Origin: Gammaproteobacteria bacterium
Lineage (GTDB): Bacteria > Pseudomonadota > Gammaproteobacteria > SZUA-229
NCBI GenBank assembly: GCA_036567985.1
Contig: DATCTK010000012.1
Coordinates: forward strand, 15,973 to 79,972
Direction: 5' to 3'
Length of the DNA: 64,000 nucleotides
The translations under genes were made by a program, and so were the position numbers. Numbering within the stretch: position 1 is the first letter of the stretch; the number at the start of each line of letters is the position of its first letter. Under the pieces are notes generated by a model, which saw nothing but the letters and a program-made list of their open reading frames with translations, was not told the DNA's origin and searched no databases. Shown one piece after another: positions 1-53,970 of this stretch.

Positions 1-141
1 TTTGCCGATGGCTTTGAATACGGCCTGGGGGCTGAAATCGGCATCAGCACCGACAAGTTGCATGCACGGGGTCCGGTGGGGCTGGAAGGCCTGACCACAC
101 TGAAATACATCGTGCTGGGCGATGGGCAGATCCGCAGCTAG
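1..141 (+). CDS. proA: Glutamate-5-semialdehyde dehydrogenase, 3' end (partial)
   Basis: Frame 1 reads [32 protein letters not shown]...*, the conserved ProA C-terminus; precedes nadD. Confidence 0.93.
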
Positions 142-156
142 GCGCTGCGTAAGCTC

Positions 157-786
157 ATGCACGGCTTGATCGGTATTCTCGGTGGCACCTTCGACCCGGT
201 GCATTACGGCCATTTGCGCCCGGCACTGGAGGTGATGCAGCAGGCGCAGTTGCAACAGCTGCGTTTTGTGCCCAATCGATTGCCACCCCACCGTGAAACA
301 CCGCTGCTCAGCGATCAGCAGCGCGCCGAGCTGGTGGCGCTGGCGATTGCCGATACCCCTGGCTTTGTGCTGGATCGGCGCGAGCTGCAGCGCGAAGGCC
401 CCTCCTATATGGTGGATACCCTGCGCAGCCTCAAACAGGAATTTGCCGAAGACGCACTGTGCCTGATTATGGGCATGGATGCCTTTCATGGCCTGCCGCA
501 ATGGCATCAGTGGGCGCAGTTGTTTGAGCTGTGCCACCTGATTGTTACCACCCGACCCGGTTCAGCACTGCCGGCGTTTGCCCGTGAGGCGGACATGGCG
601 TGTCGAATATCCGACGATGTTGGCTGTTTACAGCAGGGTACGCAGGGGCAAATCCTGTTACAATCAGTGACCCAGCTGGATATTTCCGCCAGCCTGATTC
701 GTCAGCAATTATCGCAGCAACAGAGTATCCGTTTCCTGCTCCCAGAAGTCGTTAGAGAAAAACTTGAACAAGCCTATGCAAGATAA
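157..786 (+). CDS. nadD: Nicotinate-nucleotide adenylyltransferase
   Basis: [11 protein letters not shown] motif, ISAS C-terminal motif. Confidence 0.95.
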
Positions 787-1153
787 ACAAACCGCATCGC
801 AAAACCGATCCATTGAGCAGCTCAGGGAGCTGGTCGTTAAAGCCATCGAAGACATGAAAGGTGAAGACATCGTCGAGCTGGATGTAAAAGACAAAACCAG
901 CGTTACCGACCGCCTGATTATCGCCAGTGGCACCTCCAGTCGCCATGTTAAATCCATCGCTTCCAGCGTTGCCGCCGATGCCAAAAAACAGGGCTATAAG
1001 CCGCTGGGTGTAGAAGGGGAAGACCAGGGTGAATGGGTGCTGGTGGACCTGGGTGACATAGTGGTGCACATTATGCAGCCACATATCCGTCAGTTTTATG
1101 ATCTGGAAAAACTCTGGACCTTCAGTGACCCTGCCGAGGTGGCAGCGAAATAA
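776..1153 (+). CDS. rsfS: Ribosome silencing factor
   Basis: [35 protein letters not shown]; ATG 776 preferred to TTG 764. Confidence 0.93.
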
Positions 1154-1165
1154 GACTGGTGCTGT

Positions 1166-1636
1166 ATGCGTATTTTATTACTCGCCGTGGGGCAGAAAAT
1201 GCCCGCCTGGATAGAACAGGGCTACCAGGAATACGCGCAGCGCATGCCGGCGGAAGCCCGGCTGGAACTGAAAGAAATCGCCCCCGGTAAACGGGGCAAA
1301 AACGCCGACATCAAACGCATTGTTGAAGACGAAGGCCAGCGCATGATCGCGGCCATTCCACGGGGTGCGCACATTGTGGTGCTGGATGTTGAAGGCCGCG
1401 GCCACAGCACCGAACAGCTGGCGCAGCGCATGGATGAGTGGATGCACAGCGGGCAGGACATCTGCCTGCTGGTGGGTGGCCCGGAAGGCCTGTCGGCTGA
1501 ATGCCGTGCCCTGGCAGATGAAAAATGGTCGCTGTCTGCCTTAACCTTTCCCCATCCACTGGTTCGGGTTATTCTGGCAGAACAGCTCTACCGGGCCTGG
1601 TCGGTATTGCGTAATCACCCTTACCATCGCGCATAA
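1166..1636 (+). CDS. rlmH: 23S rRNA pseudouridine-1915 N3-methyltransferase
   Basis: LVGGPEGL, LTFPHPLVRVILAEQLYRA, HPYHR. Confidence 0.95.
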   Translation: MRILLLAVGQKMPAWIEQGYQEYAQRMPAEARLELKEIAPGKRGKNADIKRIVEDEGQRMIAAIPRGAHIVVLDVEGRGHSTEQLAQRMDEWMHSGQDICLLVGGPEGLSAECRALADEKWSLSALTFPHPLVRVILAEQLYRAWSVLRNHPYHRA

Positions 1637-1648
1637 GCAGTCTGTTAT

Positions 1649-2254
1649 ATGTCTGATACTCGATTAAACCCTGTCGATTCCCCGATTACCCTCGCATCCG
1701 CATCGCCACGTCGGCGTGAATTACTGCAGCAGATACAGGTGTCCTATGCCTTGCTGCCGGTGGATATAGACGAGTCTCCCCTGCCCGGTGAAGCGCCCGA
1801 GCAACTTGTACAGCGACTGGCTCAACAGAAGGCGGCGGCGGGCTTTGCCCTGCAGCCCCGGCGCCCGGCACTGGGTTCAGATACGATTGTGGTGATCGAT
1901 AACGAGGCGCTGGGAAAGCCCGTCGATCGCCAGCATGCCATTGAAATGCTGGGCAAACTGTCCGGTCGCAGCCACCAGGTAATGACCGCGGTGGCCGTGT
2001 GCAGTGAGGATAAACAGAGCTGCGTGCTGAACACCAGCGAGGTGCAGTTCTGCGAATTAAGCGCCGAGCAGATCGAAGCCTACTGGCAGACTGGTGAGCC
2101 GCTGGGCAAGGCAGGGGGCTATGGGATACAGGGACTGGCGGCGCAGTTTATTGTGACTATCAGCGGCAGTTATTCCGGTATTATGGGGCTGCCGTTATAT
2201 GAAACCGCCGAACTGCTCAAACAGCATGGTGTTTATACAGGTCTCCATAGATAA
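1649..2254 (+). CDS. maf: Maf family nucleoside triphosphate pyrophosphatase
   Basis: LASASPRRRELL, GSDTIV, GKAGGYGIQG. Confidence 0.93.
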   Translation: MSDTRLNPVDSPITLASASPRRRELLQQIQVSYALLPVDIDESPLPGEAPEQLVQRLAQQKAAAGFALQPRRPALGSDTIVVIDNEALGKPVDRQHAIEMLGKLSGRSHQVMTAVAVCSEDKQSCVLNTSEVQFCELSAEQIEAYWQTGEPLGKAGGYGIQGLAAQFIVTISGSYSGIMGLPLYETAELLKQHGVYTGLHR

Positions 2255-2302
2255 AGAACCTGTTCGCGTGGCGACAGGTCTGTAAGGAAAACAGATAGGG
2301 TT

Positions 2303-3751
2303 ATGAATAAAGAGATTTTAATCAATGTCACCCCGCAGGAAACCCGGGTGGCGATTCTGGAAAACGGCATACTGCAGGAAATGTATATTGAACGCAGTCG
2401 TAATAAAGGCCTGGTGGGTAATATTTATAAGGGCCGGGTGTGCCGGGTGTTGCCCGGCATGGAAGCGGCTTTTGTCGAAGTGGGCATGGAACGCGCCGGT
2501 TTTCTGCATGTGTCGGATATCGCGCCCTATGATGCGCTGAACAAACCGCCGATTGCCAGCCTGCTGTCCGAGGGACAGGATGTGCTGGTGCAGGTGATTA
2601 AAGACCCGATGGGCACCAAGGGTGCACGCCTGACCGCCAATATTACTATTCCATCGCGTTACCTGGTGTTTATGCCCAAGTCGGACAATGTGGGGGTGTC
2701 GGCGCGCATTGAAGACGAGGCAGAACGTGAACGCCTGCGTGATATGTTGCTGATGCACAAGGAACAGCTGGGTGATGCCGGCTATATTATTCGTACCGCA
2801 GCGGAAACTGCCACCGCGGAATCGATGGTGCAGGATGTACTGTTTCTGAATAAATTATGGCGTTCGATCAGTGAACAGGCCAGCACGCTGGAGGCGGGGA
2901 ATGTAATACATGAAGACCTGTCGTTACCGGTGCGTGTGTTACGGGATATGATTGATGATGACATTGAAAAAATTCGTGTGGACTCCCGCGAAACCTATAG
3001 CAAGATGCTGCGCTTTGCGGAAAAGCTCTCGCTGGAGGCGCGGCATAAAATCGAGCATTATCCCGGCGAGCGACCTATCTTCGATCTGTACGGCGTAGAA
3101 GATGAAATTCACCGTGCGCTGGATCGCAAAACCATACTCAAGTCCGGCGGTTACCTGATTATCGACCAGACCGAGGCGATGACCACCATCGATGTCAATA
3201 CCGGTGCATTCGTCGGCCATCGAAACCTCGAAGAAACCATTTTCAAAACCAACCTGGAAGCGGCGCAGGCGATTGCGCGTCAGCTGCGGCTGCGTAATCT
3301 CGGTGGCATTATCATTATCGATTTTATTGACATGGTGGAAGAAGATCACCGTGCCCAGGTGCTGCGTGCGCTGGAAAAAGCGCTGGAAAAAGATCATGCC
3401 CGCACCCAGGTGTGCCAGGTGTCTTCACTGGGGCTGGTGGAAATGACTCGCAAGCGCACCCGTGAAAGCCTGGAACATGTACTGTGTAAAACCTGTCCTA
3501 CCTGTGACGGTCGCGGTTATGTAAAAAGTGCAGAAACTGTCTGCTATGAAGTGTTTCGTGAAATACTGCGTGAAGCGCGTCAGTTTGATGCAAAACAGCT
3601 ACTGGTGCTGGCGGCGCAGGAAGTGATTGACCTGCTGGTGGATGAGGAATCCAACAGTCTGGCCGAGCTTGAAGATTTTATCGGTGTACCAATCAAACTG
3701 CAGGTGGAGTCTCTCTACACCCAGGAACAGTTTGATGTGGTGATTATGTAA
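2303..3751 (+). CDS. rng: Ribonuclease G
   Basis: S1 domain, IDVNTG, RLRNLGGIIIIDFIDM, CPTC; maf-rng-yhdP synteny. Confidence 0.95.
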   Translation: MNKEILINVTPQETRVAILENGILQEMYIERSRNKGLVGNIYKGRVCRVLPGMEAAFVEVGMERAGFLHVSDIAPYDALNKPPIASLLSEGQDVLVQVIKDPMGTKGARLTANITIPSRYLVFMPKSDNVGVSARIEDEAERERLRDMLLMHKEQLGDAGYIIRTAAETATAESMVQDVLFLNKLWRSISEQASTLEAGNVIHEDLSLPVRVLRDMIDDDIEKIRVDSRETYSKMLRFAEKLSLEARHKIEHYPGERPIFDLYGVEDEIHRALDRKTILKSGGYLIIDQTEAMTTIDVNTGAFVGHRNLEETIFKTNLEAAQAIARQLRLRNLGGIIIIDFIDMVEEDHRAQVLRALEKALEKDHARTQVCQVSSLGLVEMTRKRTRESLEHVLCKTCPTCDGRGYVKSAETVCYEVFREILREARQFDAKQLLVLAAQEVIDLLVDEESNSLAELEDFIGVPIKLQVESLYTQEQFDVVIM

Positions 3752-11780: not shown

Positions 11781-12014
11781 AAAAGAAAACGCGAATGAAC
11801 GCAAATAAACGCAAATAAACCCTAAGGTTTCCATGCATGGGTTTAAAGGCGTCCATTTATTCCGCACATCCTGTGCTCCACCCTTCGGGCCGAGCATTTG
11901 CTCGCTCAAAGTGCTCCTGCACTTTAATATGATGTGCGATGGACTGCTGTATTAAAGCCTGTTCTGAAAAGCGCATGTATTCGCGTTCATTTGCGTTCAT
12001 TTGCGTTTTCTTTT
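11781..12014. repeat. Composite palindromic element: AAAAGAAAACGC-(RAATRAACGC)n arms enclosing GGA-loop hairpins
   Basis: Arms 11781-11817 and 11978-12014 are inverted; inner stem 11851-11944 carries AAAGUGC-AGGA-GCACUUU and GCACA-GGA-UGUGC on the minus strand. Confidence 0.75.
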
Positions 12015-26813: not shown

Positions 26814-26846
26814 GAAAGCCTGTCAGTTTCTGACAGGCTTTTTTTT
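26814..26846 (+). terminator. Intrinsic terminator after tRNA-Lys
   Basis: aaagcctgtcag-ttt-ctgacaggcttt stem followed by a T-run. Confidence 0.85.
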
Positions 26847-26909
26847 ATGCACAGGAGAGCGTATTTTGCGTGAGGCAGGCGACAGCCGTGAGCCGATGGT
26901 CGTTAGTCC
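26847..26909 (+). repeat. Terminator-anchored GGA-hairpin repeat, copy A (degenerate)
   Basis: atgcacaggagagcgtattttgcgtgaggcagg...ggtcgttagtcc matches the other copies. Confidence 0.7.
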
Positions 26910-26928
26910 AACGACAAATGACGCTTCA

Positions 26929-26960: not shown

Positions 26961-27003
26961 TGATACCCGTTCATTAGCGGACTCGCTTCTGTTTTATATG
27001 CAT

Positions 27004-27032
27004 AAAAAAAGCCCGGATAAACCGGGCTTTTT
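27004..27032 (-). terminator. Intrinsic terminator of soxXYZA (bidirectional shape)
   Basis: A7-gcccgg-ataaa-ccgggc-T5. Confidence 0.85.
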
Positions 27033-30890: not shown

Positions 30891-31042
30891 GCCGGCACGG
30901 GTTTCGTGCCGGTATTTAAAGTTTAAATCTCGCCTTGTAGGACATCTTTCCTGAAAATAAGTGCCCTTGAGAACAGTTATGGAGTATGGCATATCGTTGT
31001 CGGCAGCAAAAAGCGCCCCTGTTCTTTTGACTCACGACAAAG

Positions 31043-31156
31043 GACTAACGACTAACGACTAACGACTAACGACCAATGACTACTGTATACCGCACATCCT
31101 GTGCATATCGCTACCGGCATCCTTGTCTCTCGCGAAATACCGCACATCCTGTGCAT
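31043..31156 (-). repeat. Terminator-anchored GGA-hairpin repeat, copy B, with (GACTAAC)4 tail
   Basis: Two ataccgcacatcctgtgcata units (31087-31107 and ending at 31157) plus heptamer array 31043-31070. Confidence 0.85.
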
Positions 31157-31189
31157 AAAAAAAGCCACCTGGGGTTCAGGTGGCTTTTT
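31157..31189 (-). terminator. Intrinsic terminator of dsrE2
   Basis: A7-gccacctg-gggtt-caggtggc-T5. Confidence 0.85.
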
Positions 31190-34538: not shown

Positions 34539-34570
34539 AAAGGCTGCGCAATTATGCGCGGCCTTTTTTT
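34539..34570 (+). terminator. Intrinsic terminator after the FadL-like gene
   Basis: aaaaggctgcgca-atta-tgcgcggccttttttt. Confidence 0.85.
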
Positions 34571-34720
34571 ATATGCTGGATGCATGGTATTTTGCGAGAG
34601 GCATGGATGTCGTTAGTCAAAAGACCAAAGACCAAAGACCAAAGACCAAAGACCAAAGATATGGGTTGAGTCTGTTTGCGTTTATTAGTGTTCATTCGCG
34701 GGCTAGCGCGTTTTCATTTG
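34571..34720 (+). repeat. Terminator-anchored GGA-hairpin repeat, copy C, with (AAAGACC)5 and a degenerate AACGC arm
   Basis: atatgctggatgcatggtattttgcgagaggcatggatgtcgttagtcaaaag closely matches copy E; heptamers 34620-34654. Confidence 0.85.
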
Positions 34721-34777
34721 ATTTGATTTTTTAATTTTTGAAATAAAACCACTGCATTTTAGTGCTGTTTTTATATG

Positions 34778-34795
34778 TATTAGATTTTAATAATA
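34778..34795 (+). promoter_or_regulatory. Candidate operator TATTA-N8-TAATA
   Basis: 18/18 identity with 29408-29425 (reverse complement). Confidence 0.45.
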
Positions 34796-35872: not shown

Positions 35873-35904
35873 AAAAGCCCGGCTATATGTCGGGCTTTTT
35901 TGTT
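35873..35904 (+). terminator. Intrinsic terminator
   Basis: aaaagcccggc-tatat-gtcgggcttttttgtt. Confidence 0.85.
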
Positions 35905-35981
35905 ATGCACAGGACGTGCGGTATTCCGCGAGAGGCAGGGAAGCAGTCGTTGGTCGTTAGTCGAGCGTCATTCGTCAAAAG
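35905..35981 (+). repeat. Terminator-anchored GGA-hairpin repeat, copy D
   Basis: atgcacaggacgtgcggtattccgcgagaggcagggaagcagtcgttggtcgttagtcg. Confidence 0.85.
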
Positions 35982-53810: not shown

Positions 53811-53813
53811 AGC

Positions 53814-53940
53814 TTTTGACTAACGACATCTGACCCAGGACTAACGACTGATTACCTGCCTCTCACGAAATACCGTACATCCTGTACATCTTTGCTCCCG
53901 GCATCCCTGCCTCCCGCAAAATACCATGCATCCAGCATAT
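53814..53940 (-). repeat. Terminator-anchored GGA-hairpin repeat, copy E
   Basis: Minus strand: AUGC-UGGAU-GCAU, GGCA-GGGA-UGCC, GUACA-GGA-UGUAC, then gtcgttagtc tails. Confidence 0.85.
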
Positions 53941-53970
53941 AAAAAAAGCCACGCTCTAAGAGCGTGGCTT
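53941..53970 (-). terminator. Intrinsic terminator of phoX
   Basis: aagccacgctct-ta-agagcgtggctt stem with a T7 run on the minus strand. Confidence 0.85.

Follow-up and report, generated by a model that had tools for sequence, protein, structure and literature searches.

A modular hairpin repeat directly behind intrinsic terminators of Gammaproteobacteria

The element and its sites in a 64-kb window

We analysed a stretch of 64,000 nucleotides (nt) from a gammaproteobacterium of the lineage SZUA-229 (assembly GCA_036567985.1, contig DATCTK010000012.1, positions 15,973 to 79,972 of the forward strand), referred to below as the window, in which a short non-coding repeat lies behind the genes for tRNA-Lys, dsrE2, a FadL/TodX-like protein, a DUF302-like protein and phoX. 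A first-pass annotation, made from the sequence alone, had described five copies of this repeat directly behind the hairpin and T-run of these genes, had noticed ATGCA on the minus strand behind the soxA terminator and had judged the upstream hairpins to be unrelated. By reading of the sequence all five copies were found where they had been reported, the T7 of the soxA terminator is followed by ATGCAT, and comparison of the hairpins of the five occupied terminators confirmed that they are unrelated in sequence. The five sites share a common layout in which a site-specific GC-rich hairpin is followed by a run of six to eight T, by AT (once GTTAT) and then by a conserved unit of about 50 nt, with the units on the coding strand of the upstream gene at all five loci. 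The identities of SoxA, dsrE2 (DrsE_2) and the FadL/TodX-like and DUF302-like genes come from Pfam matches of their orthologs, and that of PhoX was likewise confirmed by Pfam. The terminators and copies are as follows.

26818-26846, plus strand: intrinsic terminator of tRNA-Lys; hairpin 26818-26838, T8 26839-26846; GCCTGTCAGTTTCTGACAGGC, -14.3 kcal/mol
26847-26925, plus strand: copy A, one degenerate unit (26847-26897) and a heptamer-like tail; 22.2 bits, E 0.0011
26998-27003, minus strand: stub ATGCAT behind the soxA T-run, from reading of the sequence
27004-27032, two-way: soxA terminator; T7 27004-27010 on the minus strand, T5 27028-27032 on the plus strand
31024-31156, minus strand: copy B, full unit 31106-31156 (70.6 bits) and half unit 31087-31105 (16.8 bits)
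31157-31189, minus strand: dsrE2 terminator; T7 31157-31163, hairpin 31164-31184
34542-34570, plus strand: terminator of the FadL/TodX-like gene; hairpin 34542-34563, T7 34564-34570
34571-34657, plus strand: copy C, unit 34571-34609; 48.7 bits
35877-35904, plus strand: terminator of the DUF302-like gene; hairpin 35877-35895, T6 35896-35901, then GTT
35905-35981, plus strand: copy D, terminal-type unit and heptamer tail ending GTCAAAAG; 44 bits
53813-53940, minus strand: copy E, unit 1 53890-53940 (63.6 bits) and unit 2 53847-53889 (39 bits)
53941-53968, minus strand: phoX terminator, one-way only; T7 53941-53947, hairpin 53948-53968

A covariance model of the unit (R1), built like the structure statistics below on 50 distinct units and run with filters off, found six full units in the 64 kb, all of them at the five terminator loci, together with one half unit and one shared hairpin at 11864-11876 that belongs to a different mosaic repeat; nothing further was detected in the window. 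A loose unit pattern likewise gave six matches against 0.51 expected, and a chance origin of these matches is excluded. Runs of at least six T occur 70 times on the two strands of the window, six of them behind a strong compact hairpin, and a unit follows five of these six but none of the remaining 64 (Fisher p = 5e-7), a contrast that is inflated by the T-runs inside genes, which cannot take insertions. The sixth strong terminator is that of soxA, which carries the ATGCAT stub in the window and full copies in two relatives. Intergenic T-runs that lack a hairpin, for example at 34700-34790, have no copy.

A full copy starts with 5'-AT and continues with one to four units and then a last unit that passes into GTCNTTA heptamers, a tail ending AGTCAAAAG. 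Each unit is composed of AT, a first hairpin (GYAC AGGAY GTRC), the linker GGTATT and a second hairpin, and closes with TT or AG. Hairpin 2 reads YYGC GAGA GGCA GGAY GCC GGTA GCRR; an internal loop separates its outer stem (YYGC/GCRR) from the inner stem, which is capped by a GGA loop. In the lineage of the window the modules follow a set order: zero to three units with CC/GG or TC/GA stems, often one TT/AA unit, and a terminal unit in which GTCNTTA heptamers take the place of the second hairpin; arrays of other genera end in a half unit. Since the modules are ordered in this way, as (I)n-II-III-tail, we consider the repeat a discrete element. The individual copies vary on this plan. The half unit of copy B is hairpin 1 only and continues into (GTCGTTA)n heptamers ending AGTCAAAAG at 31024-31032, the tail of copy E ends in the same way at 53813-53821, and in copy C an internal deletion joins the unit to the tail end TCGTTAGTCAAAAG (34610-34623), followed by (GACCAAA)5 at 34623-34657. 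The number of repeats in the latter tract is five in the window as against 13 in L237, a relative with 99% identity; on the sense strand it is unstructured and richer in C than in G, and as a speculation it could be a Rho-loading site.

The structure of the unit is well supported by covariation. Hairpin 1 is 99.6% paired in the 50 units with compensatory changes at three of its five pairs, and the outer stem of hairpin 2 covaries (UA 29 to CG 14, and CG 32 to UA 11). The covariation score was 0.249 as compared with 0.146 in shuffles, none of 500 reaching the observed value, and sliding of the partner abolished pairing. Within a unit the stem variants pair with their complements, CC with GG, TC with GA and TT with AA. 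Moreover G-U pairs outnumber A-C mismatches by about 4:1 and U2-G16 is found in 49 of the 50 units, so the constraint acts on the GGA strand as a single strand, be it RNA or DNA. The predicted RNA fold of copy E shows the terminator and then hairpins 1 and 2 with their GGA loops, as modelled. No terminal inverted repeats of the kind found in classical miniature inverted-repeat transposable elements are present, the 5' ATGYACAGG and the 3' AGTCAAAAG not being complementary, and the modelled unit has no common basal stem. At the left end hairpin 1 starts 1-2 nt from the junction; no hairpin was found at the right end, and nothing resembling a promoter is conserved at the far end.

Other classes of repeat did not fit. 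The period of 49-51 nt is not a fixed multiple of three, as a coding repeat would require; GTGCGGT recalls the core of the Haemophilus uptake signal, yet the CGG varies and the stem covaries; the R''/R' boxes of an integron attC site are missing; and a palindromic operator acting as double-stranded DNA is contradicted by the multiple stem variants within one genome and by the G-U pairs, which indicate one strand. Rfam searches of the window, at the gathering score and at E <= 10, returned only tRNA-Lys and terminator look-alikes and no intron, TwoAYGGAY or Csr/Rsm family, the sole CsrC match (10.3 bits against 61) covering a terminator hairpin only.

The loops of both hairpins read CAGGA(U/C/A)G, either as CAUGGAUG or as CAAGGAUG. 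This is the repeat motif of CsrB and lies near the consensus for CsrA obtained by systematic evolution of ligands by exponential enrichment (SELEX). Each array displays several GGA-loop hairpins, as CsrB/Rsm sponges do, with AGGAY on the one hand and GGA, GGGA or UGGA on the other. Judged from these motifs the sense-strand hairpins appear to match CsrA/RsmA-type sites, and the match may equally be a purpose or a by-product of the element. Contigs from metatranscriptomes contain units and heptamers; they are unstranded and possibly derive from DNA. Among them a 37-nt (GACTAAC)n contig, corresponding to window 31043-31073, reached a depth of 33-96 in the RNA runs X25, X26 and X28 compared with 2-5 for dsrE2. 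Heptamer arrays in general were abundant in sediment RNA libraries, with depths that are summed over organisms, unstranded and open to DNA carry-over.

The element was added to pre-existing terminators

To follow the sites through related genomes we collected relatives of the DUF302-like gene, which lies between copies C and D, and exact-protein matches gave syntenic loci of 21 kb. Sites C and D are both filled in the window and in L237, its 99% relative, which has three units at D and, at C, two units with a complete heptamer tail and the 13 GACCAAA. They are likewise filled in the lineage L211/L291 (93%), with two units at each site. In the L212/L294 lineage (80%) and in some 20 relatives at a greater distance both sites are empty with the terminator present; the DUF302-like site is empty in L294/L212, L213-L220 and L131-L162. 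One of these relatives, L162, carries the family elsewhere in its genome (L121).

We then compared five orthologous terminators, those of tRNA-Lys, soxA, dsrE2 and the FadL-like and DUF302-like genes. The outgroup L294 has kept all five with no unit at any of them, four with related stems (for example GCCACTTAATTACTTAAGTGGC compared with GCCACTTGATTTCAAGTGGC), and about 85 kb of outgroup loci gave no R1 match. L291 has eight units at four of the sites and a stub, ATGTGCAT, at tRNA-Lys, and the window has units at four and its ATGCAT stub at soxA. In JBFFND, a sediment gammaproteobacterial metagenome-assembled genome (MAG), all three sites that could be seen are filled, including both stub sites. 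By site, the tRNA-Lys terminator is kept in L291, in JBFFND (L060) and in the empty outgroup; behind soxA lie one unit and a tail in L291 and two units and a tail in L060; behind dsrE2 there are three units in L291, four in L292, two and a half in JBFFND (L051) and none in L294; and the ortholog of copy E in JBFFND (L016) is also filled. The terminators stand without the element in the outgroup and are therefore older than it. Thus the element was added to pre-existing intrinsic terminators, at the 3' edge of the T-run and on the sense strand of the terminated transcript. The comparison of empty and filled orthologous sites, which the first-pass annotation had put forward as a check, hence bore out its expectation, with five of five sites empty in L294 and the FadL and DUF302 sites unoccupied in about 20 relatives.

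At site D the empty L294 has GTATTTGAGC... immediately after the T-run, the counterpart of GTTTAAGC..., which stands immediately after the element in L291 and the window. Filled and empty sites, which here belong to diverged lineages, differ by no duplication beyond a possible overlap of T or ATG. Colonisation of these sites took place after the split from the L294 lineage and before the split of the window, L291 and JBFFND, because no whole-element gain or loss is seen among these three.

The L294 locus has further features of its own. Upstream of its tRNA-Lys gene (L294:2270-2440) there is a partial duplicate of the tRNA-Lys 5' half, and behind this duplicate lie three other GGA-loop hairpins (GGGCAAGGAGCC, GACAGGAGTC and GGGCAGGAGCCC), a different GGA-hairpin insertion at the same locus. 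On the minus strand behind the soxA terminator (L294:2610-2648) T7 is followed by ATGCGCGTGACTTATGTACATGTGTACATGAC, a palindrome like hairpin 1 that lacks the GGA; it may be a decayed old copy in a lineage scored as empty.

The arrays themselves change between close strains. Unit number differs between near-identical assemblies, with three units at dsrE2 in L291 and four in L292, and one at site D in the window and three in L237. When strain contigs are aligned to the window they break at the arrays, with joints that add or remove one unit only and none that skips a whole element. The copy C found in the window derives from the L237 form by an internal deletion. In addition, the segment 26847-27003 between the facing tRNA-Lys and soxA terminators is inverted relative to JBFFND L060 and L291:1785-2136: its reverse complement aligns with a score of 79 compared with 47 for the forward strand, the breakpoints lie at unit/T-run junctions, and copy A is the inverted counterpart of the inner soxA-side unit of JBFFND. 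We considered site-specific cutting at T-run|AT as the cause of the inversion; recombination between the facing 50-nt units explains it equally well. In practice, metagenome assemblies are interrupted by the arrays at gene ends, and near-identical strains differ in their number of units. For close strains, public metagenome contigs stop exactly at arrays (about 31136/31147 and 35901/35910).

For the wider distribution we used pattern scans of one genome per species together with related loci and exact-protein matches, which gave a set of 62 true arrays from about 15 genomes and metagenomes. Most of them (47 of 62) lie strictly flush with a hairpin and a run of at least five T, and about five more are flush if a degenerate first unit or a weaker T-run is allowed for. 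Of the 47 flush arrays 45 have a spacer of exactly AT, and of 46 testable cases 43 have the end of a same-strand open reading frame (ORF) no more than 220 nt upstream (median 66 nt). JBFFND, with 84-90% nucleotide identity to the window, contains about 30 loci, and two related MAGs also carry the family. Further carriers are Colwellia (three species), Cognaticolwellia mytili, Marinobacterium (two), Pseudomaricurvus alkylphenolicus (three loci), a Thiotrichaceae MAG, Granulosicoccus and Algicola. Colwellia, Marinobacterium, Pseudomaricurvus, Thiotrichaceae and Granulosicoccus share near-identical versions of hairpin 1 and the linker, and the stem of hairpin 2 is genome-specific (GACAGGACGTC, CACATGGATGTG, GCATGGACGC, GCCAAGGATGGC or GGCAGGAYGCC). 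The upstream genes in the other genera are unrelated to one another (yccA-like, rplI, etfA, ftsH, amtB and a TonB receptor gene), which rules out one conserved small-RNA locus. Unrelated upstream genes and a genome-specific hairpin 2 stem together indicate a dispersed element that is homogenised within each genome.

How copies may have reached the terminators

We favour, at about even probability, the reading that this is a modular, non-coding, non-autonomous and orientation-locked element whose target choice resembles that of group IIC introns. New copies would be placed by a trans-acting, single-strand, structure-guided integration that reads the hairpin and T-run. The later changes are those shown by the comparisons above: arrays gain and lose units, shrink by deletion to the ATGCAT stub and, where they face each other, undergo inversion. 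Read-through transcripts would display arrays of CsrA/RsmA-type sites. Hairpin 1 and the linker are near-invariant across orders while the hairpin 2 stem varies freely, and this suggests that a specific factor recognises the hairpin 1/linker end. A far-reaching form of the idea, which we hold to be unlikely, is a terminator homing that involves no intron: a trans-acting enzyme would read the hairpin and T-run on single-stranded DNA, set the element at the last T, would by now have filled essentially every strong terminator of the lineage and would couple read-through to the Csr/Rsm system. One candidate would be a reverse transcriptase that uses the T-run as primer on the A-run of an antisense RNA of the element, in the manner of short interspersed elements, an option that would also account for the variable far end and the n.5 units; an enzyme of the HUH or integrase type would be another.

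The first-pass annotation had noted that no candidate enzyme is encoded in the window, and we too found none there, nor any recurrent beside arrays. The further check that it had suggested, for a copy attached to a transposase, HUH/RAYT or reverse transcriptase gene, came back negative in the array-bearing loci, and Pfam listings of the syntenic loci contain no intron-encoded reverse transcriptase. No csrA gene was found in the window and the related loci examined, where its absence is uninformative. Of the proposal that this is a terminator-targeting non-autonomous element, the part that describes one non-coding family at pre-existing terminators therefore stands; the enzyme that would recognise terminator structure is putative, and so is current mobility.

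Several observations weigh against the favoured reading. No whole-element gain was seen between close lineages, among which only unit-number changes, deletions to a stub and one inversion occur, and the sites shared by the window, L291 and JBFFND were all already filled, so any activity may be ancient. In about 500 kb of array-bearing loci the ORFs that recur near arrays belong only to ordinary paralog families or are syntenic orthologs, and viral contigs and plasmids yielded neither the mobilising enzyme nor a copy of the element. Some arrays, about 10 in number (L052, L074, L102, L130 and the Algicola units), lie away from terminators. Since TT|AT is also how the internal unit junctions end, the junction cannot be assigned to the inside or the outside of the T-run; the T-run contrast given above is inflated. 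Recombination on T-run microhomology would produce the same picture, and the saturation of strong terminators in the lineage could reflect selection for function.

The last two points lead to a rival in which no dedicated enzyme is involved and which we regard as possible, if somewhat improbable. Copies would have spread when illegitimate recombination or template switching used the shared T-run, together with GC-rich stem ends, as microhomology, and would have been kept for a useful CsrA-type read-through RNA, possibly a post-terminator sponge or a signal for clearing read-through. In favour of this rival stand the occupation of all strong terminators (six of six in the window lineage when the stub is counted, five of five in L291), which is above the level usual for selfish elements, the internal junctions (..GGTT|AT) that resemble T-run|AT, the arrays that recombine readily in unit number, by deletion and by inversion, and a diverged Algicola unit variant that is also flush to a terminator. 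There is a parallel in E. coli, where short RNAs between the dual rrn terminators, which lie behind the first terminator and arise from read-through, bind CsrA in vitro (PMC8144298). However, no microhomology is common to the 3' junctions, the base-level conservation of hairpin 1 and the linker exceeds what CsrA binding needs while the hairpin 2 stem varies freely, an RNA function needs no spacer fixed to the base, and the contigs from RNA runs, being unstranded and perhaps containing DNA, are no proof of transcription.

The position of the copies might also be a matter of survival, with insertion at random or merely directed by T-richness and survivors left only behind terminators as the one neutral place. 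Intergenic space is indeed short, insertions in genes or promoters are harmful, and the few copies away from terminators are still preceded by TT; yet this could yield neither an AT spacer in 45 of 47 arrays nor a single orientation, and it leaves the hairpin-free intergenic T-runs such as 34700-34790 without the copies they should have, which makes it improbable. We give even less credit to the view that the arrays are small-RNA genes on the opposite strand, with UCC loops, that borrow the two-way terminator of their neighbour as a 3' end. It would explain the flush position, several host terminators do work both ways (A-run, hairpin, T-run), and the opposite strand has a weak match to the Bacillaceae-1 RNA with its UCCU loops (24.9 bits against a gathering score of 35), but the phoX and tRNA-Lys terminators offer no usable T-run on that strand, the excess of G-U over A-C and the U2-G16 pair assign the constraint to the GGA strand, and the far end lacks a conserved promoter-like module. 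That the element brings its own terminator, as pneumococcal SPRITE does, would fit the constant company of terminator and element in the window; the hairpins are unrelated between copies, however, and the empty sites, where orthologous terminators (four of five with related stems) stand without the element in L294 and many relatives, refute it, so that this view has almost no probability left.

Insertion behind an intrinsic terminator whatever its sequence has until now been a hallmark of group IIC introns. Here it is shown by a tiny non-coding repeat, exact to the base, in several gammaproteobacterial orders, and in one sediment lineage every strong terminator examined is occupied. If structure-guided placement by a dedicated enzyme is correct, a new structure-reading integration activity would follow; if the arrays act as RNA, every read-through transcript would bear CsrA-type sites, and GGA-hairpin repeats that are so far unexplained, such as TwoAYGGAY, would gain a concrete and testable role.

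Comparison with known repeats and further observations

We consider the repeat a new form of bacterial intergenic hairpin repeat, whose target specificity has hitherto been known from group IIC introns alone. Our literature search, itself incomplete, found no account of a non-intron repeat flush behind terminators, and an earlier description is possible. Group IIC introns insert behind the stem-loop and T-rich IBS1 of terminators in sense orientation, whatever the stem sequence (PMC4424553, PMC7161350), and this geometry, to which the first-pass annotation had already compared the copies, is that of the element directly behind its stem-loop and T-run. In contrast to the introns the element has no ribozyme domains I-VI, reverse transcriptase ORF or Rfam intron match; it consists of tandem hairpin units of 50-200 nt and starts with AUGYAC where the intron starts with GUGYG.

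The repeats of the TwoAYGGAY class occur in many intergenic copies in Gammaproteobacteria and combine two GGA-loop hairpins with arrays of 5-7-nt motifs on their flanks; their mosaics were proposed to be Csr/Rsm sponges with mobile-like expansion in a preprint that is silent on terminators (10.64898/2026.09.22.753630). Our element shares the two GGA hairpins and short-motif arrays with TwoAYGGAY (RF01731; Weinberg 2010), but its units have no RF01731 match even at E <= 10 and lack a shared basal stem, hairpin 1 has the loop AGGAY, and the units are arranged head-to-tail and not as divergent doublets. The arrays of hairpins with CAGGA(U/C/A)G loops also recall the CsrB/CsrC/RsmX-Z sponges, from which the element differs by its many dispersed copies and by the lack of its own promoter, terminator or Rfam match.

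Pneumococcal BOX, boxA-(boxB)n-boxC, is a modular non-coding intergenic repeat with a variable inner module of about 45-50 nt (PMC10969869). The resemblance is one of architecture only, namely a fixed module order, a variable number of inner modules, an intergenic position and no known mobilising enzyme, whereas BOX has inverted terminal modules and no reported flush link to terminators, belongs to Firmicutes and is not related in sequence. REP/BIME and REPIN-RAYT systems are likewise short extragenic hairpin units at gene 3' ends; the present units are direct and head-to-tail instead of inverted or alternating, and no RAYT or TnpA gene was found in array-bearing loci. Single-strand elements of the IS200/IS605 type are asymmetric: their ends are not inverted, their insertion leaves no target duplication, and they enter on the 3' side of a short target in a single orientation (PMC2817692, PMC1525189). 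The left end of the element, with hairpin 1 at 1-2 nt from the junction, would suit such a mechanism; within 64 kb its copies occur in both orientations, following the terminator and not one replication strand.

On the other strand the tail of the element reads (TAACGAC)n. This resembles the TAACTGA heptamers of Beggiatoaceae and cyanobacteria, which are patchily distributed intergenic tandem repeats whose function is not known (PMC4679880); both occur in sulfur-oxidising Gammaproteobacteria. The heptamer is a different one, however, and here forms a fixed 3' module of a larger element, not a free array upstream of genes.

In five loci of the Algicola MAG (L104, L106, L107, L119 and L127) we observed arrays of a diverged unit (GATGCACAAGGATGTGCGAAT and GTCGCGGGTGCATGGATGCACAGGAGCGAC) with the canonical unit inverted at their far end, a mixed orientation seen only in Algicola. 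At two of the five (L104 and L119) the diverged hairpins start directly behind a terminator T-run, on the other strand, and in L104 and L106 the canonical unit carries an insert of about 50 nt in the loop of hairpin 2.

Two contigs, L297 and L298, end near a repeat array at about 12.1 kb of the window. They have identical RNase G and neighbouring genes and, as compared at positions 1-3500, are wholly different upstream of the PilZ gene, where one assembly has a TonB receptor and a GGDEF gene and the other leuS-lptE-holA-pfkB; this difference is a rearrangement or island boundary about 6 kb to the left of the window start. Finally, the hairpin 1 of our element is reused in another mosaic repeat, present on the minus strand of the window at 11851-11944 and also in L027, L090, L115, L120 and L128. 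It reads ...CGGCCCGAAGGGTGGA GCACAGGATGTGC GGAATAAATRRACGC..., continues into decamers of the AACGCAAATA type and is located away from terminators.

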